From a virus: DNA of 61,729 nt. The stretch spans positions 1 to 61,729 of IMG/VR virus record IMGVR_UViG_3300029821_000004; one strand, 5' to 3'. This document shows, in pieces, positions 2,662 through 38,227 of this stretch (within the stretch, counting starts at the first letter, position 1; each line of letters opens with the position of its first letter). A program made the translations under genes and the position numbers. The notes under the pieces were generated by a model, which saw only the letters and a program-made list of their open reading frames with translations, was not told the DNA's origin and did not search any database.

Positions 2662-3027
2662 TTAGCGATGCTTTTTCGCTATCACGCAACACTTAACTAT
2701 CCACTGTAACAAGTATTCGAATGGCTCGTGGATCACTATATCAGCACTTATTCGCTCAAAGACAAACTTTGCAGCGTGACACGCTTCGTGAGCCATATAT
2801 TCTGGTGTGGCAAGAGCCTTGTTTTTAAAGACTATTAACACTCCAAAATCATTACTACCCTTATCGTAAACCTCAAAAGTAGATGCTACCCTACAATCTT
2901 TAATATGCTCACGAAAAAGGGGACTATTATCTGTGTACGCTAATAATTCAGTCACCCTATCTGGGTTCGGTCTATACACTATCCATAATTTGAATGGATA
3001 TATGTCTTGGTCAAATCTATGTATCAT
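2662..3027 (-). CDS. Small HExxH (minimal zincin-like) protein
   Basis: 121 aa with YMAHEACHAAKF after three predicted beta strands. It is the last gene of the coupled operon, with a 4-nt overlap to the upstream gene. Confidence 0.5.
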   Translation of the reverse strand: MIHRFDQDIYPFKLWIVYRPNPDRVTELLAYTDNSPLFREHIKDCRVASTFEVYDKGSNDFGVLIVFKNKALATPEYMAHEACHAAKFVFERISADIVIHEPFEYLLQWIVKCCVIAKKHR

Positions 3028-4355
3028 CGTAGCTTATTTTGCATCTTATCGTCAATCTCGGTGTCCATATATGCTAAGTTTGTTCTTATATCAACCATCC
3101 CCCCGAAAGAGATTATAAAGTAACGGAAAGATAATTTACTTCTAAATAGTCTAAGGTTAGCAGAGTTTTCCTCGGTTTGAGCAGCGCATATCATCTGCCA
3201 ATCTAAAAGGTCATTACTCCCGAATATATAAGCCCCAAACGGAAGGAAAGGATAGATTTCACCCCTAAGAATAGCTCTATACACAGTTTTGAAGCCCTGA
3301 GAATTGAATATTTGCGGTCTGGTGTGCATATGTACGCAAATAACACGAGGATCTTGCCCTTCAAGTGGGGTTTCGTACTGACATTCCTCCGAAAGGTCAA
3401 CTAAGTCCACATTAGCTCCATTAGTCTGGAGTGCATATTTACCTTTGCCGGATGAAAAAGATGCTGAAATTTTATGCCATAATCCCGAATTAAGATTAAA
3501 CACATACGAAAAGTCGTGATTGATATTTGATACAACAAGCTCATTTTTGACTGAATCGTAAAGCAATTTTGCTCCGGAGAGGTAGTCTCGAAAGTCGATT
3601 GTCGAAAGAAGATTACTCACCTCGTACAACTCCTCATTAGAAGAAGCTAAAAGGAAGTTCTCATTCTCCTGAATAGAATCTAGGCGACCTTCTAAGATTT
3701 GAGATATGTTTTTACCTTGTCTCCCAACCATTATATTAACTGATTTATTTGAGATATAAGCTACCCCGTTTGAAGTCTGAACTGCTCCGGGAGAACAAAT
3801 ATCGTTTGAGATAGGAATTAAGTTAGAGTAAAGAACCTTACCAGATCCTTGTTCTAAAGCGAATATACCTCTATCCGTTAAAACGATCACCGGCCATTGT
3901 CCTGTTTGGGAGTCTGAAATCTGCTCAACCATAAGAGAAAGGTCGGTTACATTGCCGCCTATTCTATATGAAGTCTCCACCGGAAAGAAAAAGGGAACGG
4001 AATTTTCACTCACAATAACTACATTGCTCTCCCTATAACTTTTATTTTCAGTTATAGGAGAAAAAGCCTCGGTTAATATCACATCTTCCTTCTTCACCCA
4101 AAACGAATGGTTATACACATTTGAAGGAGTTAAATAGATTGTCGTATTATAAGATATCTCAGTAATCGACTCCTGATACTGAAAAATGATCTTATACGCC
4201 CTCGAATCGGGATAAGAAACAAAATCTCTTAACAAAAGTGTTCTCACCTCTCCGGTTATGTCAACTTCAAAAATCATCCTGCCTTTAACCATAAGGTCAT
4301 CCCCGGATGTTCTTAGATAAACTAAGATATCAAATAATTTCTCACTTACTGCCAT
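3024..4355 (-). CDS. Hypothetical protein, probably virion-associated
   Basis: 443-aa ORF coupled to its neighbours. No motif recognised. Confidence 0.6.
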   Translation of the reverse strand: MAVSEKLFDILVYLRTSGDDLMVKGRMIFEVDITGEVRTLLLRDFVSYPDSRAYKIIFQYQESITEISYNTTIYLTPSNVYNHSFWVKKEDVILTEAFSPITENKSYRESNVVIVSENSVPFFFPVETSYRIGGNVTDLSLMVEQISDSQTGQWPVIVLTDRGIFALEQGSGKVLYSNLIPISNDICSPGAVQTSNGVAYISNKSVNIMVGRQGKNISQILEGRLDSIQENENFLLASSNEELYEVSNLLSTIDFRDYLSGAKLLYDSVKNELVVSNINHDFSYVFNLNSGLWHKISASFSSGKGKYALQTNGANVDLVDLSEECQYETPLEGQDPRVICVHMHTRPQIFNSQGFKTVYRAILRGEIYPFLPFGAYIFGSNDLLDWQMICAAQTEENSANLRLFRSKLSFRYFIISFGGMVDIRTNLAYMDTEIDDKMQNKLR

Positions 4356-4926
4356 TGCCGCTCTGTATTAAATAATATATATATTCTCCTTCAATTTTCT
4401 TTAACTTAATCTCCATCGGTTTAAAATCTTCATCATAAATCTCATTATCTACTATCTGAAGAGCTTTAGGGTTGGTTATTCTGAGTTGTTTCAGTCTTTC
4501 CGGGTTAGGAATAGAAACTAACAAGGTACCGGTGCAATGGTCAGATATGTTTTTAATGAACTTCTTTTTATCCAAAATATGCTCTAGGCAATCAAAACAA
4601 CAGACTAAATCGAACTTACCTAAGTTTACCCCGGTAAAATCACCACTCATATAATTTATGTCGGTGTAGAGATTGTGCTCTTTAGCTGCTTTAATATTTT
4701 CAGTCGAGAGGTCAATAGCTGTAATATTGTGGGCGTATTTCCTCAGGTGTTCGCTTGTTATCCCGGTTCCGCACCCTATATCCAGACAATTATCAAGGTG
4801 TTTAGAAGAAAGCTGACTATCAATAAACGATAGCACTTTCGTTAATCGTGGGCTCTTTGCTTTAAAATACGACTGCAAATACTTAGATTTATTGTCGTAA
4901 AACTCTTTTACTTCGTCTATTTGCAT
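4342..4926 (-). CDS. Class I SAM-dependent methyltransferase
   Basis: Motif I LDIGCGTGITSEHL, acidic post-I residue (AIDLS), and later FDLVCCFDCLEHI. Confidence 0.75.
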   Translation of the reverse strand: MQIDEVKEFYDNKSKYLQSYFKAKSPRLTKVLSFIDSQLSSKHLDNCLDIGCGTGITSEHLRKYAHNITAIDLSTENIKAAKEHNLYTDINYMSGDFTGVNLGKFDLVCCFDCLEHILDKKKFIKNISDHCTGTLLVSIPNPERLKQLRITNPKALQIVDNEIYDEDFKPMEIKLKKIEGEYIYYLIQSGNGSK

Positions 4927-5663
4927 ATTCTTGCAATTAAATCATTACTCAAAAACTCTCTCATATCTTTAGAGACCTTCATATAATCTACATTTTTAGC
5001 CTCTTCTATCAACTCTAACACATTATCTTTATTCCAAGGTAGCGCATTAGGTGTATTTCCGTTCCAAAGTACTTTTCTACCCATTAATCCCATTTCGCAA
5101 ACAGTATTGGAAAGCCCATCGTGAGGGGTAAATCTTAATCCTACGAAACATTTTTTATAAATGTCGAATATCTCTTTCCGGGAGTAAGAGTGAAAATCAC
5201 ACTCAATAACCTTATAAGAGGCGTGTCTCTTCACCCAATTATTAAGATCACGACCATATAAAGGGGATTGCGACTTATAAACATAAATAGAATCACCCAG
5301 AGGACAAGGCTCTGCCTCTGTCTTAAAAGGAAGCACCGGAGCAGAGATGAACGGAATACCCCATTCTTTTAAGTCGTTTTCAATAAAAGAGCTTATTGCA
5401 ATATGAGTAATATGCTCTCCCCTGACTGAATCTATAAGGTGGGGGTTCTTTCTTAGCCACCTTATATCCCCACCGGTCCAACACAGATAAAGTTTAGCAT
5501 CGTGAAGCCTTGCTTGTTCAATCTGTTTTTCACCATAACAACCAAAGAAAAAAGCCTCACTCTCTTGATTAGTGTAAGGAAGAAAATCAATATCAGGGTA
5601 TTTCTCAATAAAACCCCTGCGAAAGTGCCCTCCGGCATTACAAGCTAATTGAATCTTTCTCAT
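4917..5663 (-). CDS. Putative GT-B-like glycosyltransferase (weak)
   Basis: HDGLSNTVCEMGLMGRKVLWNG resembles the GT4 E-x7-E region (EGFGLxxLEAMAxGxPVI). At 248 aa it is shorter than a typical GT-B. Confidence 0.35.
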   Translation of the reverse strand: MRKIQLACNAGGHFRRGFIEKYPDIDFLPYTNQESEAFFFGCYGEKQIEQARLHDAKLYLCWTGGDIRWLRKNPHLIDSVRGEHITHIAISSFIENDLKEWGIPFISAPVLPFKTEAEPCPLGDSIYVYKSQSPLYGRDLNNWVKRHASYKVIECDFHSYSRKEIFDIYKKCFVGLRFTPHDGLSNTVCEMGLMGRKVLWNGNTPNALPWNKDNVLELIEEAKNVDYMKVSKDMREFLSNDLIARICK

Positions 5664-6766
5664 TTCTGTTCTGAATAAATCTTTCGTATGATAGTAGCTA
5701 ACTCCATATTATTAGGAGTGTTCTTAAATATACTCTCAGGAATCTGAATCATTCTCTCTTTTCTCAGGTCAATGTTGAATTTTTGACACAAGTTGTCAAA
5801 AGTCATCACAAACTTACCCTTGTATTCTTCCCTTTTTTCCATTATGGGGCACTCAGAAAGCATCTGTCTAGCTTTAACTTTGGAGCCGGTATTAGGAAGG
5901 AAATTAGTCAATCGCTTATAATCTTCCACAAAAAGGGTTGCAGTAAGTAGCTTATTAAACTGAAAGTTCTCCTGCCTGAGTCCGTGAGTGCCTTTCTTTT
6001 TAAATATATGCCCGGTCTCTATATGTGGAGCCACCCTACAAGATCCTCCCATCATCCAACTTTTAATCGAGATATAAGGCTCTAGAGTTCCCCATTGTCT
6101 ATGTCCCCACCATCCGTCTATATATTCGTACCAACTCTTTTTAACCCCGTAAATAGCCCCTAGAACACAGGGAACTTCATAAGATCCTTCTTTGGTTGAG
6201 TCTCTTCCCAACCATTTAGCCTCTAAAATACTTTTATACCCAATAGGCTTACGAGGGTTGCTTTCGTGATCGTGAAAGGCTATAAAGGTTGCTCCGTGCC
6301 AATGGTTCTTAACTCTTCTCTTGGCAAAGTCCATATTATTTAACGGATTGTCCGGGTTCTTACAATTCTCCCCGGTACATTTACCATTTATAATATCCGC
6401 ATCACAACATTGAGACCTCATATTTAACCCTACACAAGTAGTACAAGTCCACGCTTTGGGGTGCATTTCAATCTCTTTAACCAGAAGTGAAGCCCAATTA
6501 TTCTTTACAAATCGAATATCACAAGCCATAATAATTAGGTTTTCACCTTTTGCCTGTTTAACCCCTGCATCAAAACTCTGTCCCACTCCTACATTAACAA
6601 GGTTACGAATGATAGTTACCCCCTCCAATGAAGGAAGGGGTTTATCACTACAATCGTCAACTACGATTATCTCGTGCTGAATATCTATCGTCTCTTTAAT
6701 CTGTTTGAGACAATCGGTAAGAACCTCTAAAGGCTCGTTGTGATAAGTTATTATTATGCTTGTCAT
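5660..6766 (-). CDS. GT-A glycosyltransferase resembling mucin-type polypeptide GalNAc-transferase catalytic domain (GT2/GT27-like)
   Basis: The N-terminus reads SIIITYHNEPLEVL...EIIVVDDCSD. Later, WGTLEPYISIKSWMMGGSCRVAPHIETGHIFKK aligns by eye with the Gal/GalNAc-T motif WGGENLEISFRxWxCGGxLEIxPCSxVGHVFR. Confidence 0.6.
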   Translation of the reverse strand: MTSIIITYHNEPLEVLTDCLKQIKETIDIQHEIIVVDDCSDKPLPSLEGVTIIRNLVNVGVGQSFDAGVKQAKGENLIIMACDIRFVKNNWASLLVKEIEMHPKAWTCTTCVGLNMRSQCCDADIINGKCTGENCKNPDNPLNNMDFAKRRVKNHWHGATFIAFHDHESNPRKPIGYKSILEAKWLGRDSTKEGSYEVPCVLGAIYGVKKSWYEYIDGWWGHRQWGTLEPYISIKSWMMGGSCRVAPHIETGHIFKKKGTHGLRQENFQFNKLLTATLFVEDYKRLTNFLPNTGSKVKARQMLSECPIMEKREEYKGKFVMTFDNLCQKFNIDLRKERMIQIPESIFKNTPNNMELATIIRKIYSEQK

Positions 6767-9357
6767 TGTATTGTTCCGTTAATAAATTGATAAATCACTG
6801 AATCTTCTACGCCTGAGTTCTTCTCAAACATCCAATATCCATCTGCAATCAAAGTGGATCCTTCCTCGGTTGTGTACCATAGGTCATCATTAGGATCACT
6901 CCATATTGTCCCTGTTAAGTTGCTTGTAAAGCAATCAGAAGCGGAGGTAGCACTATATCCATAATAAGCGTTAGCTGCTCTAGGTGCGTCTGTCGTTCCT
7001 GCACTTGTTGTTCCGGGCTCAGTTGTATCTTCCTCGGTAGTGCCGGAAGCAGTAGTTCCTTCATCCGTAGTCCCTGGAGCAGTAGTTGGTTCCTCAGTAG
7101 TTCCGCTTTCTGTTGTAGGTTCAGGGGTGGTTGGCTCTTCGGTTGTTCCTTCTTCTGTTGTGCCGGAAACTAAGATCCCGTCAGAATCATACAAAGGCAC
7201 TCCACTTGCACCTATTTGAATCCTTCTTTCGACTCCAAAAACATAAGTACCAACTGCATAATAACCCTCTTGTGCGAATGTGGTAAACTCATCATCTGCG
7301 TAGGCAATATAGTTTCCACCCACCAGATTAACATAAAGAGCAACTGTATTGTAGTTATTAGAAAGTATGCGAGTATCTGCATCATTTTGAGCGTATGCAT
7401 CAAAACCATTACAAACAATAGGTTCAGGAGGCGCTATTGTTGTCCCTGGGCTAGTCGTGCCTATTTCTGTCGTACCTTCTTCGGTGGTAGTAAGTTCACT
7501 TACGGGTTCGGTTACAAATGATTTTTGACCACCATAAGCCGTTCCTGCACTATTTATAGCATAAGCTCTAAAGTTGTAAGTAGTATTTGCTTCTAAGAAT
7601 AATATAGTAGCCCCCACTAATCCAAGACCAAAACTCACTCCTACTTTAGTGTCTGCAGTTGTAGGTTCGTCAGAGGTTGAGTAAACTATTCCACTCTCAG
7701 TAACAGGAGAACCGCCCTCACTAGTAACTGCTCCGCTAACCTCTGCCGAATACGCCCCTATATTGGCTGCATCGTAAGTAACAACAGTAGCGTAAGTTTC
7801 TGCATCAGTAGTCCCCTCTTCGCTTGTCCCTTCCTGAGTAGTTCCTATTTCAGTAGTCCCCTCGGAAGTTGTACCTTCGCTTGATGTTCCGTCAGAAGTT
7901 GTTTCATCCTCTATTTCCCCAATCCTTATCGCCCTGATTGTAGAAAAACTATAAGGCTCTCCATAATTAACCAGATACCAACCCGGATCTACAAGGGTGC
8001 TTCCATTTTCTGTTGTGTAATAATTCCCATCGGTAAGGTCGTACCAAAGTGTACCAATAACAGGTCTAGGTTGCCCTACAAGTACCTCCCAAGCATTATA
8101 AGAGGAAATTATTGAATGAGAATAATACTCCTCAGAAACTCTGCCCGGAGCTGCAGTTGTGGTTGGAAGAGGCAAAGTCTCAGCTAAAGACATTAGCATA
8201 AAAACCTCAGGATCGGGGGTAAGAGTCTTTTTTATATCGAAAAGATGAAGCCTATTGTTATAGACAAAAGGTTTGCCTACAACAGACACCCACCCGGAAG
8301 AGTCAACCGGCATAGTTTTTCCGGTAAGAATCTCGTCTCCAAATTTGATTTGATACTTTTCTTCAATGGAATTAATCTCAATCTGGTGGCATTTGTACAT
8401 TAACTCGGAAAGAAACAAAGCCTCGTTAAAGACTACCGGGGCCACTTCGGAGGTTTCTAAAAGAGTGTTGTTAATATCATAATTGAGAGTAATTCCATCC
8501 AAAGTCGCTTTATAATAAGAGATAGGTCTCGAGCAGTAAATATTGACATACTTTAATATATCTGAGAATTGGGCGTAATTTGCAGGTAACCCTATACCTA
8601 AGTACAGCCTTTCCACCTGAATATTCACCCACACATTCTGCCTCATTGAACCGCCCCACTCAACCCTAATCGGAGTTTCATTATACGCTCCCAACTTATA
8701 AAGAGTAGGAGGGGACATTTTTGTTTCTGAACCATCAAAAAGAGTGTAAGAAGAGGAAACTAGAATATAACCTTCGCAAAATTCAAGGTCAAGGTTTCGC
8801 GCCTCATTTATCGCAGCACCTATCTTCTCTTTAAAATCTCTTATTACAGAAGCCTCAAAAGGCACATCAGCATCTATAAGCCCTGTACTGAATTTACTTG
8901 AAGCATTTACCTTAGTATCTCCCTCTTCAAGTTCAAATCTTTGAATAAGAGCCATAGCCGGGAGTCCGTTAAAGAGTAATGAATAAGCCCCTGCCTTGTA
9001 TTGATACACAACTAACTTAGTAGCTTCTGCACAATTAATAATAAGCATATTATTCAAAGTAGAAAGCTCAATATTTACCGAGGGGCAAGAGTGTATTTGA
9101 GTAGGGGTTCCGGTTGTCCTATCCACCTGATAAACCTTATTGCCTATCACGACAATAAGATTATTAAATGAGGATGAAATATGCTCTATGACTCTGGAAT
9201 AAGTCTTATTGGATAGGATGACTCTCTTTCCTCCTATCACCCTGAGACTGCCATTTTCAGACCTTAAATTAATAAGCTCCTCACAGGCTCCCTCAATAGG
9301 GGTTTGGTCAGAGGTATTTCTTATAATACCTTGAAAATTTACTTTTTCTCTTCTCAT
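6763..9357 (-). CDS. Virion-associated multidomain protein with three mucin-like Thr-rich linkers and an Fn3/Ig-like domain
   Basis: 864 aa. Linkers of GTT(E/P/S)x pentads lie at about 7795-7912, 7421-7515 and 6979-7167. The Fn3-like segment ends ...NTTYNFRAYAINSAGTAYGGQKSF. Three small domains share WY..(E)GSTL..G(W)Y. Confidence 0.7.
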   Translation of the reverse strand: MRREKVNFQGIIRNTSDQTPIEGACEELINLRSENGSLRVIGGKRVILSNKTYSRVIEHISSSFNNLIVVIGNKVYQVDRTTGTPTQIHSCPSVNIELSTLNNMLIINCAEATKLVVYQYKAGAYSLLFNGLPAMALIQRFELEEGDTKVNASSKFSTGLIDADVPFEASVIRDFKEKIGAAINEARNLDLEFCEGYILVSSSYTLFDGSETKMSPPTLYKLGAYNETPIRVEWGGSMRQNVWVNIQVERLYLGIGLPANYAQFSDILKYVNIYCSRPISYYKATLDGITLNYDINNTLLETSEVAPVVFNEALFLSELMYKCHQIEINSIEEKYQIKFGDEILTGKTMPVDSSGWVSVVGKPFVYNNRLHLFDIKKTLTPDPEVFMLMSLAETLPLPTTTAAPGRVSEEYYSHSIISSYNAWEVLVGQPRPVIGTLWYDLTDGNYYTTENGSTLVDPGWYLVNYGEPYSFSTIRAIRIGEIEDETTSDGTSSEGTTSEGTTEIGTTQEGTSEEGTTDAETYATVVTYDAANIGAYSAEVSGAVTSEGGSPVTESGIVYSTSDEPTTADTKVGVSFGLGLVGATILFLEANTTYNFRAYAINSAGTAYGGQKSFVTEPVSELTTTEEGTTEIGTTSPGTTIAPPEPIVCNGFDAYAQNDADTRILSNNYNTVALYVNLVGGNYIAYADDEFTTFAQEGYYAVGTYVFGVERRIQIGASGVPLYDSDGILVSGTTEEGTTEEPTTPEPTTESGTTEEPTTAPGTTDEGTTASGTTEEDTTEPGTTSAGTTDAPRAANAYYGYSATSASDCFTSNLTGTIWSDPNDDLWYTTEEGSTLIADGYWMFEKNSGVEDSVIYQFINGTIQ

Positions 9358-9749
9358 TTTCCTGATAATTTTTCGTTTAGATCTTCATAAAAACTCTTTA
9401 CGGGAGATGCTTCTTGATCCCTCTTTTTAAGGTCGTGCAACTTATAGAGTGCATTGATCAAAGGAGGTGCGTCAGTAGCCTTTTCGATGATTATTTCTAA
9501 TCTTCTCATTGCTTTATCGTATAAATCATTAAGACTTGGTATCTCGCTTTGATTAAAGACCTCTGCACACTTATCCTCTTTAAGTAGTTTCTTTACTTGA
9601 TCGAGATACTGAGTTTGCATTTTAGCAAGTCTTTTACAGGGTACGCCCATATCCTTATATAAAGGAACGATCTCACCCCCATAACGAAAGTGTAACAGAA
9701 ACACATAATTGATCATCTGTTGTTCTGTGTATTCAAATTTCCTTGGCAT
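9354..9749 (-). CDS. Hypothetical protein (first gene of the operon)
   Basis: ORF track 9354..9854, with the ATG at 9749 (MPRKFEYTEQQ) preferred. The upstream part is hydrophobic junk lying in the promoter region. Confidence 0.5.
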   Translation of the reverse strand: MPRKFEYTEQQMINYVFLLHFRYGGEIVPLYKDMGVPCKRLAKMQTQYLDQVKKLLKEDKCAEVFNQSEIPSLNDLYDKAMRRLEIIIEKATDAPPLINALYKLHDLKKRDQEASPVKSFYEDLNEKLSGK

Positions 9750-10480: not shown

Positions 10481-11464
10481 ATGGCAAAGCAAGAGAATAA
10501 ACTAAGGACAACAGTTGCTAAGACTGTCAACCCTAATCCTCTCCCAGAGGTGCAGCAAATACAGCCTGACACCACTCCTTTTGTATATACACCCGGGACA
10601 AGTGTTTTAGATATCATTAAGCAAGGCAAAAGACAAGAAGAGGTATATCAAGCGCAAGAGGTAGATCTTAAAAAACAAGCCAAGCTAAACGCTTATATGG
10701 ACTTCTTTAAATCTTTAGGAGGTCTGGCCGGTGGTGGTTGGGCCAATGTACAACAATACCAACCTTCCCCTTACTTAACTCAGGCCTTTGGGAAGATTGA
10801 CCAACTAAGACAAGACAAGCAGACTTCTCAGCAATATTATGATGAAATGGCCCGTAGAGGTCAAAAAGAAGATTATAACACCCAATTATCAGCCTATAAT
10901 CGTTCTCAGGATAAGAATTTCCAGATACAGAAAGCAAATACTGACGCTCTAAACAGAAGGAACCTCGAACAATATAAAATGGGAGCAGAGAAAGTTACTA
11001 CCATAGACGATCCATTAGCAGAAAAAAGAGCCGAAACATCCGCTTTTAACGCACAAACCGCAAGGATAAGAGCAGAGAAGGGGCCACAATCACAAAATAA
11101 AGCTGAAAAGAAAGAGGCCGAAGAGAAGGAAGTCATTTATACTTTAAATAAACCGGAAGGTTCTACTCAAATAACCAAAGAGAGAGCGACCAAGTTAGTT
11201 GAGAGAGTTGAGAAAGACCTTAAAGACAACACTAAAATCTTATCTCCGGAAGAAGAACAAATCAGAGAGGCGTTAAAAGATGCTAAACTTGATAAGAAAG
11301 CACTTATAAAAGCTATTGACCTGATTAGGAAATACGATAAGACGGGTAAGTATAAAGGATATTGGATTGAGCAGAAGAAAGAAGATACTGCCCCGAAATC
11401 TTTTTTACCACAAAGCCCCAAAACTCAGTCAAACACCCCTAAGAAATCACTATTACCAAAATGA
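10481..11464 (+). CDS. Hypothetical Lys/Glu/Gln-rich protein, putative internal virion protein
   Basis: 327 aa. ATGA overlap with the giant ORF start. Confidence 0.5.
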   Translation: MAKQENKLRTTVAKTVNPNPLPEVQQIQPDTTPFVYTPGTSVLDIIKQGKRQEEVYQAQEVDLKKQAKLNAYMDFFKSLGGLAGGGWANVQQYQPSPYLTQAFGKIDQLRQDKQTSQQYYDEMARRGQKEDYNTQLSAYNRSQDKNFQIQKANTDALNRRNLEQYKMGAEKVTTIDDPLAEKRAETSAFNAQTARIRAEKGPQSQNKAEKKEAEEKEVIYTLNKPEGSTQITKERATKLVERVEKDLKDNTKILSPEEEQIREALKDAKLDKKALIKAIDLIRKYDKTGKYKGYWIEQKKEDTAPKSFLPQSPKTQSNTPKKSLLPK

Positions 11465-14400
11465 TAGACAACAATAAAAGAGGACAGCTCTACGATAATC
11501 TCATAGGTACGGGTAGGGTAAATCAGGAGCAGATAGGAACCAAAGATGAGTTTCTTTCTGCAATAGGTGATCGTGTGAAGGCTTCTGAGTTTCACAAAAA
11601 CTTACTTACTGTCTTTGATAAAGAAGAGGTCGGAGATGAACTTTCTTTCCTTGCATCCATAGAAGAGGATTTTATGCCAAATGATCCGGTTAATAAGTTT
11701 ATGGCTAAACAACCTCAGGGAGTAGTGGGAGCAATGAAAACAAAGATGGGAGAGCCAAGAATGAAAGACGGCCTTCCTGTTCAGGAGTCTATCCCCTTAG
11801 AAGTAGATGAGCCGGACCAAACTGATTACCCCACACCACAATCTTTGCCCGAAATTGACAACCAGATTGAACAATTAAGCCAAGAGGATAAGGGTTTTAT
11901 TAATATCTATCGTGATGTAAAAAAGAAAAAAGAGGGCGATTATCAGGAAATGGCAGCTCTTGGCCGGGAAGGTAAGTCTATGAACCTCTTTAACGTGATT
12001 ACCAAACCCAAACTCTCAAAAGAGGAAGAGGCCTTTTATACAGAAAACAGAGAAAGAGGCGACCAGATGCTTGACAGAGAAAAAGCTCTGTACCTACAAA
12101 AAGACTTTTTAAGACTAAAAGAGAACCTCGAAAAGTACGATAGTAAAGATAGTGGACTAAAGACTTTCTGGAAGGGACTCACACAAACAGGACTTTTAAA
12201 AGATTTCCTCTCATTAGGCCAAGTGGAACTACAAAGAAACCTCGATGTAATGGGAGTCTTTAATAAGGCCGTAGAAGAGCCTGAAAAACTCACTAAGGAG
12301 GAAGAAAGGCTACTCACTTTATATAAAGAGTGGGATAACGCTTCTAAACAAAAAACAGATTTCTGGTACACAGCCGGGCAATCTTCTCAGATTATGGGAG
12401 AGTTTATTGCAAATATGGTTGGTGCTAATATAGCTGCAGGAGGATTAAGGGCCGGAATGAGGTCTGCCTTTAATGTAGCAACAAAGGAGTTTCTTAAAGG
12501 GGCGGGGAAAAAGGTTATTGCAGCCAATATTGGCAAAAAATTAGGTGAAGCAGCTATCTTTAATGTGATGGCTCTTCCTTCCCGGACTACATTTTATAAA
12601 GAGTTTACCGGCAAATCGCTTGAAGGGTACGGAAAGAATCAGTACGGGGAATACGAAAATACCGGCTCAATAGGAAAAGACCTTTACGAATCTTCCATTA
12701 GAACTTTTATGGAATATTTTGCTGAGGAATATTCTACCTCAGTTTCCGGTGGTTATGCTACCAACCTTTTAAAAAGTAAAGCAGGAAATAAATTACTTGG
12801 GAACACCTTTGAAAAACTAAGTAAAATAACCGACAATCCGGCCTTTAATCAGGTTACTAAGGTAATGAATTACGCCAATATAGGCAATGTGCCTGAGGAG
12901 ATGTTTGAGGAAGTTCTAACCCAAGCAGGGAATGGACTCTTTTTATGGAGTAAAGACGATATCGCCCAATTAGCGGATCCTGATTTTTACAAATCTATTG
13001 CAGTAAGTGTTATTGCTCTGCAGGGGGCAATTACCGGAACACAATTAGTTGCCGGTGGAGTAGGGAATAAGATTGAAAAGAACAGAATAAACAGACAAGC
13101 CACAAGGTCGATAAATGAACTGAATACCTTAAATGTTACAGACGAATCCCTGATAAATCAGATATCACTTTTATCGGAAGATCTACAAAAAGGCGAGTTT
13201 GCAGATACCGAGGGAAGAATAGAGTTGGGACCAATCTTAACTAAGTTAGAAGATATACGAAACAACCCACAAGTAACAAGCGAAGTTTTAGCTGCATCTA
13301 CCAAAGCAGTTATGGATAACGCAAGGAAATACGGAACCTATACAGGAATTGAAGCTATGGCCGTAGAATCTATTGGGGAGTTTTCACATAAAAGAACCGG
13401 GAATGTTATTATAGCAAAACGAGGGGAGGAAACATTTTATATTTTAGATGAGCTCCCTCAGGAAGAAGGCAGGGCTATTATGGTAGCCAGACCACTTGAA
13501 GGAGGCGAATCTGTTTCAATAAATTCAATAGAGTTTGACGACTTTCAGGTTGTACCTAAACAGGAGTTTTTAGAATCTTGGTTACAAGGTAGAGAAATAA
13601 TCGAACCGGCTATTGCAGAACAAGAACAAGAGGAAGCTATTGTACAAGAATCTTTGCAAGAAAACCCTGTAATCGAACCACAGATAGGAAATGGATACCT
13701 TTTAGCTGGGGAGCCTGTAAGTGTAATTGATATTTCCGATGAAGGAATAGGAGTACAAGACAGAGAAGGAGGAATGCACATAGTTGACATTTCCGAACTG
13801 ACCGAGATACCTCAATTAGCTAAACAAGTAGCAGAGCAGCAAGTACAAGTACAGGAACAGCCACAAGTACCTATTGACGAAAAAGGAGTAATAGACTACT
13901 CTCAAATAACCTCTCCCGAACTTTACGCACAAGCCTTAAATGACGAATTTGGGGAAGAATCTATCACTATGATAGACGAACTTATAGCCGAGCAGCAAGA
14001 CCTTCTAAAAAAGGCTGAAAAGGGCTCTACAATCGAAAGAAAAAGAAGCGAGAGAATAATCAATGCCGAGATTGAGAAACTTAATCAGGTGAGAGGTATT
14101 CTTGTTCCGCAAGAGGCGGAAGCACCGATTGAGAAAGTGCCTATAAATATTGAATCGGAAGTAGTTGAAGATTTACCAGAGGTAGAACAAAAACCCGTAC
14201 AAGAAGAACTCCCGGAGATAACTAAGAAACCTTTATCTGAAACAGAAAGACGAAACAAACTCGTTGATGATGTTCGCGCCTACAATAAACTATCCTCTGC
14301 CAAGAAAAAGAAATTTAACCAAGTAGGACTTTTAAGAACTACAAATGAGTTGGGGTTTGTATTTGGTTACGATAAGGGCGGAAACATAACTATCAAGACC

Positions 14401-17400
14401 AAAGAAGGAAAAACAGTAACCAAGGTCGCTGATAAACAAAGCAAGGAACAGACAGAATCTCACAAAGGGCTCTCGGACTATTCAGACGAGATGCAGCAAG
14501 TAATGTTACTATTCTTGAATAACCCCGAATCTTTAGTAGGATTAAGCGGAATAGGTAAAGCACAAACAGAACAAGGGATTAAGAATATACTTGCAGCAAA
14601 AAAGACAGTAGCTGCCAATGCTTTACTTGACCAATTAGAGAGTGATATTCAGTTTGGTTGGGTTACAGTTAATGATTATAAAACAGGACAAAAAGCAGAT
14701 GTGGAGATTGGCGAATATTTGCTTTTATTTGTATCGGAAATTGAGGCGATAAACGAAGATGCTACCGAACTTAATGACCTCCCGGACTTTGAAGCTATGG
14801 ATGCTTTGGAGGATATGCCAGAAGATATTTTTGGCGTATATGAAGATATGCCAGACTTTGAAGAAGAAATAATAAATACACAAAATAATGAACAAGCAAG
14901 AGAGATTACAGAGAATCAAGACGAATCTCAAGCTGATGTTCCTATTCAAATGCAAGGAGAAGGGGATATCGCCAGAGGTGAGCAACCTGACACCGGAATT
15001 GAGGCAGGAGATGAAGCAAGAGTACCGCAACAGACGAGGCAGATAACACCTCAGTCTATTGAGATTGAAAAACTACAAAAAGACCGGGAAGCTGCAATCG
15101 CAGAGAAAAACCGGCTAATAAAAAACAATGTTGACAGAGTAGGTTTATTTGGGGACACCAAAATAGATCCTAACGACCTATTTGAAGGGGCAGGGTTTGA
15201 TCCCACCGCTTCTCAACCTCTTATTGATAAGCAAACCGAAGTCATAAAAGAGATTGACCGCAAGATTGAAGTCTTAAAAAAGAACGAAGCAGCCGGTATT
15301 GAGGAAGCTAAGGGGCAGCAGTCTATTGAGGATAAACTTGCCGAAGAAGAAGCTAAAGTAAACCTTAATCCGAGTGAGGGGCAAAAGGAAGCGGGTAACT
15401 ATAAAAAAGGACATATCACTATCCAAGGTTTTGATTTGACTATTGAGAACCCAAAAGGCTCTCAAAGGTCTGGCGTTGATGAATCAGGTCGTGAATGGAG
15501 TCAAATCCTAAATAATACCTACGGATATATCTTAGGCACAACAGGAAAAGACGGAGGGCATATTGATGTGTTCTTAGGGGATAACCTTGAATCAGACCGA
15601 GTGTTTGTAGTTGACCAGATAAACAAAGATAAATCATTTGATGAACATAAAGTAATGTTAGGCTTCGATACTATTATTGAAGCAGAACAGGCCTATCTCT
15701 CCAACTATGAAGAAGGATGGCAGGGGTTAGGCAATATCACTCAGGTTCCTATTGAAGATTTTCGGAAGTGGACTGAATCAGGAACAAGAAAAATTAAGCC
15801 TTTTGCGGAATATAAACAAGTAAAAGACCAACCAAAAGCGGAAGAGGTACAACCCGAGCAGGGAGAGGTTGAGGATGCACCTGAACGCTCTGTAAGTAGC
15901 AATAGGGTAAAGGCAGTAGAAACTGAAGAAGGGGAAATAGCCATAGTAGATAATTCTATTCAACCCGATATAGACAATAAGGCGGGGGAGATAGGAGAAG
16001 AAATGTCGGAAGCAGATATAAAAGAGGGAGAAGAAACCCTTAGTAAGATGCAAGACTTTGGCCAAAAAATTGGTATGGCAAGAAAAGATACTGCCGAAAG
16101 AGGGTTTACTCTTAAAAGAGGAAAAGGGGAAAAAGAAGCTCCGGGATGGTCGAAAAAGTACAAAATATTCAAGCAGGAGAAAGGCACATCATATTCAGAT
16201 TGGAACACGATAGAGGGTAAGTATTCTGTGAACATTGTTAGTGGTAATTTCTTCAAGACACTACAAAAGAACTTTAACACAGAGGAAGAAGCTATGGCAG
16301 CTATCCCAATGATAGAGGTATCGAGAAATCATAGAGTTTACCAATCAAAAAAAGAAGATGAATATTCAATATATCGAAAATGGAGTAGTGGTAAGTTGTG
16401 GGAGATAAAAAAAGGATTTAAAAGCAGGGAAGAGGCGTTAATGTATATGGCAAAAAACGCTGAGGAGATTATTGGCTACAAAGTTGGTAGAGTAGAAAGG
16501 CCACATTTAGATAAGATAGAAAGAGAGGGAGTTGAAAGAAGAAAGGGCAATGTTACTCCTGAGCAGTTTATGGAAACCTTCGGGTTTAGGGGAGGCGAAT
16601 TTGGGAATTGGGTAGCAGCAGACGAAAGACAGTCGATGCTTAATTTCGCTTTTGACGCTCTCTTAGATATGGCTGATATAATCGGGGTATCTCCAAGAGC
16701 CTTATCATTAGGGGGTAGGTTAGCTATTGGTTTTGGCAGTAGGGGACAAGGGCTATCTGGAGCAGCAGCGCATTTTGAGCCAGAAAGAGGGGTTATTAAC
16801 CTTACTAAAATAAGTGGGGCCGGATCTCTTGCTCACGAGTGGTTTCACGCTTTTGATTCATATTTTGGTGTAGTTGGTAGAAAGGGATTTATTCCCAATC
16901 AAGAGGGAGTTATGCCTGAGCCTTCTCGTGAAAGAGATTATTTAAGTGGGGACTATAACTCTAATCCTTATGTGCGCAAAGAGGTTAAAGATGCTTGGAG
17001 GCAAGTGTGGGAGACAATGAGGTATAAAAAAGAGTTGTCTGAGTATGATATGACTCGACTACAAAGACAATATGATTCAGCAATAAATTCTTTAAATAGC
17101 TCACTAAAGACAGCAAGAGCTTGGATGGAAAGAGATAGGACTTATGGACTGAGAAAAAAAGCAGCAACGCCTGAGCAATTAGCAAAATGGGATAGTCTCG
17201 CAGAAAAGGCGAATAAGTTTGAATTTGGTAAGGTGCAACCTAAAAAAACCAAGAAAAAATACTCATTTGAGAATGAATATCAACTCCAAAGAGAACTACA
17301 AGATCTATATAAAGAAGTTACCGGCAGAGAGAGCGGACAGCTCGAATACGGAGAATTTAGAAATATAGAACTAAATAGAGAACTTATCCAAAAAGCAGAG

Positions 17401-20400
17401 AAGGATAAGACATTTGAGGCGAGGAAGAATACTACATTTTATAATGGAAGTAAGGATATGGATGCTTCAAGAGTAAGTTCTTATTGGGGTACTAATCTTG
17501 AAATGGCAGCAAGGGCGTTTGAGGCCTATGTGGATGATAGAATAAAGGAAGCGGGGGCAAGGAACGACTATTTAGTGCATTCGGTAAATAATTACATATA
17601 CGAGGTGCTTTATGATGCAAAACCATACCCGGAAGGAGAAGAAAGACAGAACATAAATAAAGCATTTGATAACCTATTTAAGGTATTGGAAGAAAAGATA
17701 GACGAAGAGGGTAATACTCTTCTTTATCGCACAAGCGACAATACCGACTTAACAGATTTTAAACGAGCTCAATTTAATATCATACAAGCAACTAATCCGA
17801 TGCTTGATGATTATCATACCGGAATAAGGAGCGTAGAGGATATTTATACATTCGAGGAGGCATATCGGAAAGATATAGACACAGATAATTTTATGCTATC
17901 TCCTGACTATAAACAGAAAGATGTAGAAGATGCCCTAGAAAGCGGAAGTATTACAATATACTCCTCAAAACCTATACAGAACGGAGTATTTGTTACTCCA
18001 AGTAAAATGGAAGCAGAAGCGTATTCAGCTAATGGGAAAACTTACTCTAAAATAGTAGCTTTAAGTGATGTTGCTTGGATAAATAATTACGAGGGGCAAT
18101 ATGCAAAACAAGACACTAATCTTTATCGCACCATAGGCGAACGAGGCGTATCTAACCAATCCGAAGAAGCTATCATAAGACTTGATAACTTGAAAGTAGC
18201 AAGAGAAATGGAGACTCAAAACAAGTCCCAAAAACAAATCAAACTTGCGACAGGATGGGAGAGAGGCAAAGATACTAAATGGAGGTATGAAGTTGAGGAT
18301 GATATTACTATTAAAAAAATACCAACTTTGGAGTTTCCACCTAAGTTTCATAAATTTGACGAAATATTTGAGAGTAAGACCTTATTTAAGCAATACCCTC
18401 AAATAAAGGATATAAAGGTTGTATTTATTGATAAGCCAAATGGTGGATTTGGTTCATTTACACCGATTGCTGACATTTTAGAATTAAATATAAATGAAGG
18501 ATTATTACAGAGGCTCTTGCGTGGACTACGCAGATCCACTACAAGAGTGGAAACCTCAGAAAATAGAGGAAATGACCAAAGTAGAAATGATTATGCAGAT
18601 GTTCTGGGACAATCCCTTGTTCACGAAGTACAGCATATTATTCAAATGTATGAAGGTTTTACCCAAGGCAGTCGTACAGAGGATATACAAGCACTTTATC
18701 CGGAACTTGTCGTGGAGCGACTTAAAGCTAATGAGTCAATGGGAGAGCCAACGGATGATGAAGGCGTGTTTGGAAGCAGTGGCACAAGGGCGGCAAGAGA
18801 TATATATTACAAAACCGCTGGGGAGGTAGAGGCAAGAAATGTAGCAAGGCGTTTAGATATGCCTTTACAAGAAAGATTAAGCACTTTACTTTCCGAAACA
18901 GAGGATGTTTCAAGAGAAGATCAAATCATTTTAGGGGAACAATTAAGTTCAGGACTCCTTCTGAGAACCCCTTATTTCTACTCCCCAACGGAACAGGCCT
19001 TAAATTCAATCAAACAAGAAAAAGCAACTCCCGAGCAATGGAGGGCTATGTTGCTCAAAAACGGAGCGAAACAGGCTGAAATGGACTGGATGGGATTTGA
19101 CGAATTTAGTCAAGACAGGAAAAGTCTAACTAAAGCAGATATTCAAGAGTGGATTGACCAGAATAAGATTGAGATAGAGGAGGTTGAGAAAAGACAAGAG
19201 AGTGGTTCTATAACAAATGAATTAACTGATAATGCAAAAGAAGAACTCGAAAGACTGCAAGAAATTGAACAACGTTGGTTATCTATTGAATCAGCACAGG
19301 TAAATGGTTATGAATTAACTAAAAAAGATCAAGAAAGATTAACGGAGTATGAAAATGAATTTGAAGATATATCAGAGGTTAGTGATAAAATAAATGATCT
19401 TCAAAACGATGCAAATAACTATAAACTTGACGAAAATGGCGATACCAAATACTCCCAATACCAACTCCCCGGAGGAACCAATTACAAAGAGTTGTTATTG
19501 ACGATGCCTTCAAAATTGGAAAAAGAGAAGAGAAGGCAAGAAAACGCAAACGAGTTTATAAATATTGAAGAAGGAAAATACCAAGACGACTTCCACTCCG
19601 GTCACTGGGATGAACCAAACATCCTTGCTCATATAAGATTCAACGAGAGAGAAGTAAACGGAGAAAGGATACTATTCTTAGAAGAGATACAATCAGATTG
19701 GGCTCAGAAAGGGAAGAAGGATGGGTTTGTAAATGATAGGGATAAGTCTATCTATAATTTTGCAAAGTCAATCTATAATATAAAGATAGCTGCACTACGA
19801 AAGCAAATATCACAAGAAGAGGCTGAGCGAAAACTATTATCAGAGAAAGTATTATCAGAATCCCAAGGGATAACAGAGCAGGAAATAAATCAATTTCTCT
19901 ATAAATATGGAGATTTTACAATGCCATACGCAGCAGCAGTCCCCGATATGCCTTTCAAGAATACCGACCAATGGGTAAACCTTGCGCTCCGTAGGATGAT
20001 GATTTTCGCAGCAGAGAACGGATTTGACAGGATAGCTTGGACAACGGGCGATATTCAAGCAGAGAGGTACGATTTGAGTAAGCAGGCGAAGCGCATACAG
20101 TTCTTTAAGCAAAAGGATGGCACATACCGTGGTATAGCATACGATAAGGATGATGATGTTGCTATGAATTTTAATGGAGATGCAAATAAACTTGAAACAA
20201 TTATAGGCAAAGAGGCTACTCAAAAAATAGTTGAAAAAGCAGAAGAGACGGGGAGGCAATATTATCTAAATAACCAAGATCTCAAAGTAGGCGGACAAGG
20301 TATGAAAGCCTTTTACGACCAGATACTCCCTGCACAAGCAAATAAGATAGGCAAAAAGTTTAACGCAAAGGTTGAGAGTGTTGAAATTCCTGCAAGTGAG

Positions 20401-37495: not shown

Positions 37496-38227
37496 ATGAG
37501 CAAGTATTTTTACAAAGGAGCAACGCTTAATATGGTTTTTGCGACTCCTATCCCACAATCGGGAAACAGAAAGACCATAACCGGCTACACTTTTAACGCT
37601 ACCCTGAAAGCAGGGGTAACTACTTACACCCTACCCGTAGAGGTGGTGGATCAGTATTCATTCAAACTATTTCTTACCGAGTCAATCTCTTCCCGGCTCT
37701 TAGCAGTAGATCTTCTACTTGTTATTGAGGCAAGAAAAGACAACAAGGTGCTTATCGGGAGAAACACCGACCTAGTTTGTGTGAATCCAGAGAACGGATT
37801 AGCTGTACCTGATTTGGATAGCGAAGAGGCAATGACTGTAATCTTCGGGGATGGTGGAGAATTGGAATTTGAGTTTGACCTTCCTACTATTTCTACTTCA
37901 CCTTTTGAGATGTGGTTAGAAACACACCCAGAAGGAACACAGGCGCAGTTTCTCGCTTCAATACTTAACCCGACCTATAACGGAGCAGTTCCCGAGTATA
38001 GCGACTCTGCCGGTAATAAAGGCGAATTTGCAGTTGATTCAACATACCTCTATGTATGTTTTGCTGATAACTCTTGGGGAACGATAGCTATTGGAAAAAG
38101 CGTCTTAGACGCTGCCCCTACAACTACTCCAGAACCTACAACCCCTGAGCCTACCACCGAAGAAGGAACTACCCCTGAAGCCACAACTGACGAGGGTACT
38201 ACACCTGACGGAACCACAGGAGAATAA
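37496..38227 (+). CDS. Fibre-related protein, N-terminal paralogue of the 1199-aa fibre, with a mucin-like Thr/Pro/Glu tail
   Basis: MSKYFYKGATL...ITGYTFNATL parallels MRKEFYKGESL...ITDYTVEATL of the next gene. Both carry W..(N/H)PEGT(E/Q)..F motifs. The C-terminus (38107-38224) reads PTTTPEPTTPEPTTEEGTTPEATTDEGTTPDGTTGE. Confidence 0.65.
   Translation: MSKYFYKGATLNMVFATPIPQSGNRKTITGYTFNATLKAGVTTYTLPVEVVDQYSFKLFLTESISSRLLAVDLLLVIEARKDNKVLIGRNTDLVCVNPENGLAVPDLDSEEAMTVIFGDGGELEFEFDLPTISTSPFEMWLETHPEGTQAQFLASILNPTYNGAVPEYSDSAGNKGEFAVDSTYLYVCFADNSWGTIAIGKSVLDAAPTTTPEPTTPEPTTEEGTTPEATTDEGTTPDGTTGE

Follow-up and report, generated by a model that had tools for sequence, protein, structure and literature searches.

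A predicted mucin-like O-glycosylation module between the halves of a split tail nozzle gene in a short-tailed phage

The virus record IMGVR_UViG_3300029821_000004 (positions 1 to 61,729, analyzed in full and called the window hereafter) is a near-complete phage genome of ~62 kb. It encodes a P22-type portal protein, an SU10-type major capsid protein, and a large terminase. The phage is short-tailed (podovirus-type), and its host probably belongs to the Bacteroidota. A near-identity DNA search found no close relative of the window among GenBank phages. The subject of this work is an operon of seven minus-strand open reading frames (ORFs), which runs from position 9749 to 2662 with start/stop overlaps of 4, 4, 4, 10, 14, and 4 nt. 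An original prediction, made from the letters of the DNA, had proposed that enzymes of this operon glycosylate the Thr-rich linkers of a virion protein encoded beside them, and the overlapping gene arrangement that it described is indeed present. The parts of the operon are listed in the direction of transcription, where GT denotes glycosyltransferase and SAM denotes S-adenosylmethionine.

9354..9749, minus strand: 131-aa small ORF, first in the operon, overlapping the 864-aa ORF by 4 nt and standing outside the glycosylation chemistry
8158..9357, minus strand: nozzle N-half in the strict sense, covering approximately the first 400 aa of the 864-aa product
6766..8157, minus strand: display array that extends the N-half at the split, with three ~70-aa beta-modules, one Fn3-like domain, and three Thr-rich linkers
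5660..6766, minus strand: GT-A glycosyltransferase, phage-restricted and GT27-like by sequence; predicted initiating polypeptide O-glycosyltransferase
4917..5663, minus strand: compact GT-B glycosyltransferase of 248 aa; predicted glycan extension
4342..4926, minus strand: class I SAM-dependent methyltransferase; predicted glycan methylation
3024..4355, minus strand: C-half of the nozzle, 443 aa, a separate polypeptide
2662..3027, minus strand: 121-aa last ORF of the operon, phrog_1365, with HEACH as an HExxH-type motif

A terminator scan of the operon revealed no convincing terminator inside the cassette, the scores being at background. The sigma-70 promoter scan of the operon also remained at background level, with a model that excludes Bacteroidota-type promoters.

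The nozzle protein and its split

The 864-aa protein and its family profile returned no match in Pfam, PHROGs, or the PDB sequences. A tblastn search of GenBank phages with the 864-aa protein yielded no relative except one Fn3-like fragment. The N-half domain (the first ~400 residues) has few close homologs, and P0189, P0191, and P0192 among them are unsplit single proteins. It was found to be 30–39% identical to the N-terminal ~380–390 residues of the unsplit 835–838-aa proteins P0189 and P0192 (39% to P0189). The 443-aa ORF is 42% identical to residues 393–838 of P0189, 35% identical to P0192, and 50% identical to the C-half encoded at locus L235; it also matches positions 515–941 of 968 in phrog_32516. 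Judged by these alignments, one ancestral protein has given rise to both the 864-aa protein and the 443-aa ORF, which represent its two halves. The possibility that the N-domain of the 864-aa protein and the 443-aa ORF are paralogs was considered separately and rejected (BLASTP expectation value, E, above 4).

Since sequence searches were empty, the identity of the nozzle, like that of the GT-B enzyme below, was resolved by structure prediction. The AlphaFold2 model of the unsplit homolog P0189 had a predicted local distance difference test score (pLDDT) of 81.6 and a predicted template modeling score (pTM) of 0.77. In a Foldseek search with this model, the 13 best PDB matches were all podophage tail complexes (E = 1.3e-15 to 5e-8), including those of cyanophage A4, SU10, T7, P22 gp10, and the Sf6/VP1/GP4 portal–tail complexes. 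Its matches in BFVD were labelled P22 Gp10 or stabilization protein. The TM-scores against the tail complexes were low (0.24–0.37), as expected for a multi-domain protein, and no sequence-level similarity of the window nozzle family to solved nozzles was found. According to the model, the window protein is a tail nozzle with the SU10 gp17 / T7 / P22 gp10 fold, in which a platform is combined with a beta-propeller core; it would be a virion protein of the tail. In SU10, the nozzle gp17 is a hexamer bound to the adaptor, with Ig-like domains inserted into its beta-propeller (PMC9509320). The gene order at the related locus L149 is compatible with such a place in the virion, since the nozzle gene comes last in the late structural operon there, behind those for capsid, adaptor, and tail fibre. 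The unsplit family is large, with 2,423 cluster representatives in a full HMMER scan and at least 507 loci in IMG/VR. The original prediction had taken the 864-aa ORF for a stand-alone virion protein. The virion identity is supported by the nozzle fold; the stand-alone character is not, the ORF being the N-half of a split nozzle gene.

The split point corresponds to residues 388–394 of the P0189 model, one of its few low-confidence loops, and as modeled it maps to a flexible inter-domain loop. The gene order at the split is N-half with display array, GT-A, GT-B, methyltransferase, and C-half. The display array has the following parts, all on the minus strand.

7924-8136, minus strand: ~70-aa beta-module
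7795..7923, minus strand: Thr-rich linker 1, spanning aa 479-521; its 43 residues include 13 Thr and 5 Ser; predicted target of O-glycosylation
7492-7794, minus strand: Fn3-like domain
7417..7491, minus strand: Thr-rich linker 2, spanning aa 623-647; its 25 residues include 9 Thr; predicted target of O-glycosylation
7168-7416, minus strand: ~70-aa beta-module
6982..7167, minus strand: Thr-rich linker 3, spanning aa 731-792; its 62 residues include 24 Thr, with 8 GTT and 3 PTT; predicted target of O-glycosylation
6766-6981, minus strand: ~70-aa beta-module

The beta-modules were delimited by a repeat alignment with the consensus YYGxSAxS...G..Y.D..DG..YTT..GSTL...GWY, and they have no family assignment. 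For the Fn3/Ig-like domain of the original prediction, the PDB matches were all Fn3 domains (titin, contactin, NCAM) with E = 0.007 or worse, and the assignment is kept as a tentative one, as Fn3. In split relatives, the beta-modules and Thr linkers are carried on the C-terminus of the N-half or on the N-terminus of the C-half, and beta-modules occur at the split-nozzle termini of P0229, P0231, P0239, P0211, P0219, and P0253. At locus L237 (10001-14840), the nozzle is split at the same place and bears a BACON-domain array, with no Thr linkers and no enzyme genes. From these sequences, the split junction appears to be a general display site.

Two small ORFs frame the operon. Homologs of the 131-aa ORF lie directly upstream of the nozzle gene in L149–L152 and L234–L236 (BLASTP E = 1e-7 to 1e-18). 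The HEACH motif of the 121-aa ORF (2662..3027) suggests a small metallopeptidase-like protein. The unsplit nozzle gene at L152 has the gene of a 312-aa GT2 behind it (13055-13993), and this GT2 stands outside the GT27-like family described below.

The three cassette enzymes

For the GT-A ORF (5660-6766), a generic GT2 N-terminal domain is all that Pfam shows (Glycos_transf_2, PF00535, at 5.6e-14). The PDB was more informative. In a single-sequence phmmer search, 16 of the 18 matches were GT27 polypeptide N-acetylgalactosaminyltransferases (GalNAc-Ts). The best match was GalNAc-T4 (E = 1.3e-10), and its alignment runs through the Gal/GalNAc-T motif, so that the by-eye alignment of the original prediction proved to be real. 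Residues 198–312 matched GalNAc-T4 with E = 1e-6 for that stretch, and residues 2–111 aligned with the same region of GalNAc-T4, T12, and T10, which is the nucleotide-sugar-binding half with the GT1 motif present. We also built a family profile from 30 members and searched it against the PDB. The 16 top matches were all GT27 enzymes (E = 2e-17 to 3e-9), with alignments that span the entire catalytic domain and the Gal/GalNAc-T motif in it; generic GT2 enzymes came at E = 1e-7 or worse and covered only the N-terminal ~85–116 profile positions. The sixteenth match was 8UHV, a Toxoplasma mucin-type O-glycosyltransferase (PMC11074326). With GT27 enzymes as its 16 best solved relatives, the GT-A is not placed by the profile searches in a polysaccharide or teichoic-acid GT2 clade, a placement that the original prediction had named as speaking against it. 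The identity between the GT-A enzyme and GT27 is ~20–30% in the aligned stretches.

The family comprises at least 216 metagenomic homologs, which are typically ~315–330 aa long and end shortly after the catalytic domain. Its invariant residues include D37, D83, R85, H222, W225, and H253. Among the 30 profile members, W225, G226, E229, S233, W237, G240, G241, and H253 are invariant or nearly so, and H253 falls opposite the conserved His in the GHVF segment, which is part of the Gal/GalNAc-T motif. At the site of the GT27 D-x-H motif, the family pattern is [AGS]-[CSA]-D-[IMV]-R, which keeps one acidic ligand: the HMMER alignment places D83 opposite the His, the position of the first Asp is occupied by A/G/S, and an invariant Arg follows. 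Pfam found no ricin-type lectin domain in the enzyme, and there is no membrane anchor, the maximum Kyte–Doolittle 19-residue mean being 1.04. Because the literal D-x-H motif, the lectin domain, and the membrane anchor are missing, we term the enzyme GT27-like; on its sequence, it falls short of a demonstrated GT27 member. None of the three cassette enzymes has a membrane segment or a signal peptide, which is consistent with the cytoplasmic action that the original prediction had assumed.

A Cys-rich insert, CCDADIINGKCTGENCKNP, was observed in the GT-A (window positions 6316-6423, minus strand, ~aa 115-150). It is present in about one third of the family members and may be a small metal-binding or disulfide loop.

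The distribution of the family was examined using a family-specific degenerate DNA motif from the C-terminal half of the enzyme. The motif matched 11 viral contigs and, in a set of 185,579 species genomes of bacteria and archaea, only two contigs of ~10 kb each, both in Bacteroidales/Bacteroidetes metagenome bins. All GT-A contexts examined were phage, namely a crAss-like phage, a 531-kb jumbo phage, and a 145-kb phage. By these sequence searches, the GT-A family is phage-restricted. In jumbo-phage contigs (308-531 kb; L003 5975-20945, L141 3294-5083), the GT-A gene lies within a large glycan gene cluster, which includes a 1147-aa double GT2, a GT10 fucosyltransferase, a GT8-like protein, several DUF6734 proteins, and a UDP-sugar dehydrogenase. 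On the 145-kb phage contig (L005, 13706-15625), a 639-aa collagen-like protein with long GPQ triplet repeats is encoded a few genes downstream of GT-A.

The 248-aa ORF at 4917-5663 gave no sequence-family match in Pfam (GT4 included), PHROGs, or the PDB sequences. Its AlphaFold2 model was of high quality (pLDDT 95.9, pTM 0.90). Foldseek returned 61 PDB matches at E ≤0.001, and all of the 50 best listed were GT-B enzymes. SenB, TarM, SdgB, GtfA, Gtf3, and BshA were matched at a Foldseek probability of 1.0, with a TM-score to the query of up to 0.71. The model thus supports the guess made in the original prediction and assigns to this ORF a GT-B fold with two Rossmann-like domains. Alignment of its 67 homologs gave the segment D182-x7-E190 as a variant of the E-x7-E motif, in which D182 is invariant and E190 is nearly invariant; this motif was read from the sequence alignment. 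The GT-B gene is located directly downstream of GT-A in the window, L009, L010, and L072.

The third enzyme (4342-4926) was recognized by Pfam as a SAM methyltransferase, in line with its earlier annotation (Methyltransf_23, 2e-17; Methyltransf_11, 4.5e-16; Methyltransf_25, 6.9e-15). SAM motif I, LDIGCGTG, occupies residues 48–55. The protein is 48% identical (E = 9e-55) to the C-terminal methyltransferase domain of P0036, which is a GT-A fusion protein. Fourteen of the 120 listed GT-A homologs are at least 480 aa long, and 12 of these 14 have precomputed methyltransferase Pfam domains. Such gene fusions indicate that the two enzymes work together.

Thr-rich tracts and their pairing with the GT-A family

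The three Thr-dense linkers noticed in the 864-aa protein at the outset contain 46 Thr in 130 residues and 15 GTT triplets, and they are built mostly of GTT/PTT units. The DNA of linker 3 is an imperfect 15/30-nt tandem repeat. In control sequences (~1.5 Mb of phage and metagenome loci), Thr tracts of such density occurred in ~0.9 ORFs per 100 kb, and those were short and weak. The first scans of viral and metagenome loci had been dominated by generic GT2 matches, and these loci were reused as controls.

A second candidate substrate is encoded 30 kb from the cassette.

37496..38227, plus strand: 243-aa tail-appendage protein with a Thr-rich tail at nt 38111-38224 (the last ~38 residues, 15 Thr, GTT/PTT style)

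This protein has a PHROG tail-protein match. Over its first 153 residues, it shares 30% identity (E = 4e-19) with the N-terminus of a tail fibre from L149, which has 1471 aa and a Fib_succ_major domain, and its gene is directly upstream of that of a 1199-aa tail protein with a Fib_succ_major domain.

The co-occurrence of tracts and enzymes was examined from both sides. On the substrate side, we fetched 80 IMG/VR nozzle loci, which together with L151, L152, and L153 gave 83 unsplit forms. All 80 were unsplit and carried neither the GT-A family, nor the GT-B family, nor a genuine Thr linker, and L151–L153 were alike in this respect. The GT-A gene follows immediately downstream in five of the six split nozzles with Thr linkers (the window, L150, L234, L235, and L236), as against none of the 83 unsplit forms (Fisher p = 1.4e-7, with kinship ignored). 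In L235 and L236, the GT-A gene is directly followed by the C-half, with no GT-B or methyltransferase gene between them, so the minimal module would be GT-A alone. Locus L237, with its split nozzle and BACON array, has neither Thr linkers nor a GT, which implies that the GT tracks the linkers and not the split.

On the enzyme side, the sample consisted of 19 non-redundant GT-family loci outside the window, each viewed within ±10 kb, and 51 generic-GT2 phage loci served as controls. A poly-Thr tract was found in the same-strand ORF immediately upstream of GT-A (0–52 nt) in five of the 19 loci (L001, L009, L014, L143, and L144) and in none of the 51 controls (Fisher p = 0.001). The poly-Thr proteins of these five loci are all different, and several of the tracts are C-terminal tails (L001, L009, L143, L144). 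Two further GT-family loci showed short Thr runs. The Thr-tailed genes of L143 and L144 are in head-module neighbourhoods near the major capsid gene. It is this enzyme-side pairing with unrelated substrates that provides independent support. Viewed from either side, the linkers and the GT do not assort at random, as they might have done had the original prediction been wrong.

In L149, the gap between the nozzle halves (12511-13344) holds a 207-aa ORF with an IDDDD motif and a 68-aa ORF. The 207-aa ORF has a sub-threshold GT2 Pfam match (E = 0.003), and it showed no match to the GT family profile and no PDB match; it may be a non-orthologous replacement of the family GT. In L143, an inserted GIY-YIG/HNH homing-endonuclease gene (5845-6837) separates the gene of the major head protein from the structural genes downstream of it. 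Elsewhere in the window, a 4930-aa polyvalent protein is encoded just upstream of the portal gene (11461-26253, plus strand), with the domains InPase, LPD1, LPD23, ART-PolyVal, and LPD38. Its counterparts in relatives have 3424–5791 aa and other domain sets (helicase, MuF_C, LPD3/5).

Interpretation and comparison with known systems

With these results in hand, we consider it likely that the operon encodes a cytoplasmic O-glycosylation module of the phage, which makes mucin-like glycodomains on its tail proteins. What follows on the attachment of sugar, on Thr as its acceptor, on the sequence in which the enzymes act, and on arms that point outward is our inference. The soluble GT-A would transfer the first sugar from a nucleotide sugar onto the clustered Thr residues of the three N-half linkers, and it would probably act on the C-terminal Thr tail of the 243-aa tail protein, too. 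The compact GT-B would add a further sugar, and the SAM methyltransferase would methylate the glycan. Six copies of a glycan-coated arm, carrying the small beta-modules and the Fn3-like domain, would then project from the tail hub. Mucus adherence, shielding, or mimicry, as suggested in the original prediction, may be roles of such arms.

Several points weigh against this assignment. The case for glycosylation is wholly computational. The literal D-x-H manganese motif of GT27 is absent from the GT-A enzyme, in which the aligned segment is A-C-D83-I-R85. Thr/Pro-rich linkers serve as plain spacers in many proteins. About 11 of the 19 GT-family loci, that is, more than half, have no Thr tract in the neighbouring gene, and the Thr-linker nozzle of L149 is without a family GT in the 22.5 kb seen. 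Moreover, the proteins of L234–L236 are 44–57% identical to the window protein, and the five positive nozzle cases share ancestry; a single insertion event is therefore possible, and the p-value on the nozzle side overstates independence. The loci with no adjacent Thr tract, the case of L149, and the shared ancestry also favor the serious rival explanation. On this view, the linkers are common spacers that bear no sugar, the target of the GT cassette is another phage protein or a small molecule, and linkers and cassette travel together as cargo at the same permissive nozzle site. We regard this as unlikely, because the GT family is also found beside non-homologous poly-Thr proteins in crAss-like and other phages and beside none in the controls, because the split nozzle with the BACON array lacks linkers and GT together, and because the closest solved enzymes are specifically glycosyltransferases of peptide Thr/Ser.

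It is decidedly improbable that the enzymes act like many phage GT2 enzymes and remodel envelope glycans of the host (lipopolysaccharide, capsule, or host glycoproteins), with a block to superinfection as one possible purpose. Serotype-converting phage glycosyltransferases are the textbook case of such a role (reviewed in PMC12619734). The domain seen by Pfam would suit this explanation, and in L070 and L141 the neighbour of GT-A is a nucleotide-sugar enzyme, as in polysaccharide clusters. On the other hand, neither membrane segments nor lipid-carrier features were found in the three enzymes, and the near-absence of the family from cellular genomes argues that GT-A was not borrowed from host polysaccharide loci. 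The cassette stands inside a tail structural gene as part of one overlapping operon, and the GT-A occurs in contigs of crAss-like and jumbo phages, which are generally lytic. A hypermodification of phage DNA by the GT and the methyltransferase, analogous to the glucosylation of hydroxymethylated bases, seems extremely remote, even though DNA glycosylation is, according to two sources, the best-known role of phage glycosyltransferases (10.1101/2023.12.21.572611; PMC12619734). Among the replication-module ORFs scanned, there is no hydroxymethylase or base-modification precursor enzyme and only an ordinary DNA methyltransferase. The cassette belongs to a tail operon, its GT is related to peptide-acting enzymes with no nucleic-acid-acting enzyme among the PDB matches at E ≤0.01, and DNA modification would leave the tight pairing with Thr tracts unexplained.

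The glycosylation of tail proteins in this phage may be one instance of a wider system. On this broader proposition, for which we see about even chances, a GT27-like phage clade builds mucin-type, Thr-linked, sometimes methylated glycodomains on the virion appendages of crAss-like, SU10-like, and jumbo phages of Bacteroidota-type hosts. Prokaryotic viruses would then have a counterpart to the mucin O-glycosylation of eukaryotes. The enzyme gene would typically come right after the gene whose product is modified and, in one lineage, would have entered the nozzle gene and split it. If true, the range of virion glycosylation would come to include a second phage group, which is very different and abundant, considering the size of the nozzle family in IMG/VR and the occurrence of the GT in crAss-like and jumbo phages. 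In the GT-A, the GalNAc-transferases that initiate mucin glycosylation would have a relative that is soluble, compact (~320 aa), and free of a lectin domain; this enzyme could be useful for producing mucin-like glycopeptides in bacteria and would bear on the origin of GT27. A Thr tract beside a GT-A family gene would offer a genomic rule for glycosylated phage proteins. An essential tail hub protein would be seen to tolerate a loop split and to work as a display scaffold, which is relevant to phage engineering, and glycan-coated appendages would bear on phage persistence, immune recognition, and host range.

Searches of the full-text literature brought up neither a GT27-like enzyme from a phage nor any account of glycosylated Thr tracts in phages of this kind. 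To our knowledge, phage virion self-glycosylation has been proven by experiment for mycobacteriophages only. This is also the closest known system. As two citing papers summarize, glycosyltransferases of Che8, Rita, and other cluster F1 phages modify the phages' own structural proteins in the cytoplasm, with the glycans located at the C-termini of capsid and tail-tube subunits (PMC12619734, PMC11256854). In mycobacteriophages, this glycosylation changes the production of antibodies and can keep them from binding to the capsid. A C-terminal position on a structural-module protein is also seen for several of the present Thr tracts, namely those of the 243-aa protein and of the GT-A neighbours in L001, L009, L143, and L144. 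The hosts differ, being Actinobacteria there and, by inference, Bacteroidota here. The present system has a GT27-like enzyme, long internal mucin-like nozzle linkers besides the tails, and a cassette inside a split structural gene; it is known from genes alone, whereas the mycobacteriophage glycans were shown by experiment.

With the eukaryotic GT27 enzymes (GalNAc-T1 to T12 and Toxoplasma GalNAc-T3), the phage enzyme shares both halves of the GT-A domain, the Gal/GalNAc-T motif, and the His at the GHVF position, and its likely acceptors are clustered Thr residues in Pro/Thr/Ser-type tracts. It differs in having no membrane anchor, stem, or ricin-type lectin domain, in the change of D-x-H to (A/G/S)-x-D-x-R, in its predicted cytoplasmic instead of Golgi location, and in the fusion of some members to a methyltransferase. 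The systems of Ser-rich repeat adhesins (GtfA/GtfB, Gtf3, SdgB) also carry out cytoplasmic O-glycosylation of long Ser/Thr-rich repeats with enzymes encoded beside the substrate gene, and the 248-aa GT-B is structurally matched by SdgB, GtfA, and Gtf3. In those systems, however, the initiating enzyme is a GT-B, while here it is probably a GT-A, and the substrates are secreted adhesins rather than phage tail proteins. The GT-B described here is much smaller, and it resembles the non-protein GT4-type enzymes SenB, TarM, and BshA equally well.

The podovirus nozzles (SU10 gp17, the T7 fiberless-tail chain 6r21_a, and P22 gp10) are matched in fold by the unsplit homolog, with Foldseek E = 1e-15 to 5e-8. 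The resemblance extends to the SU10-type capsid protein and the P22-type portal of the window phage, and SU10 gp17 also has Ig-like insertions (PMC9509320). The nozzle of the window differs from these in being encoded by two ORFs, split at an inter-domain loop, with the display array and up to three enzyme genes between them. What is new here is that the 864-aa protein is the N-half of a nozzle, that the 443-aa ORF is its other half, and that the display array and the enzymes are situated at the split.

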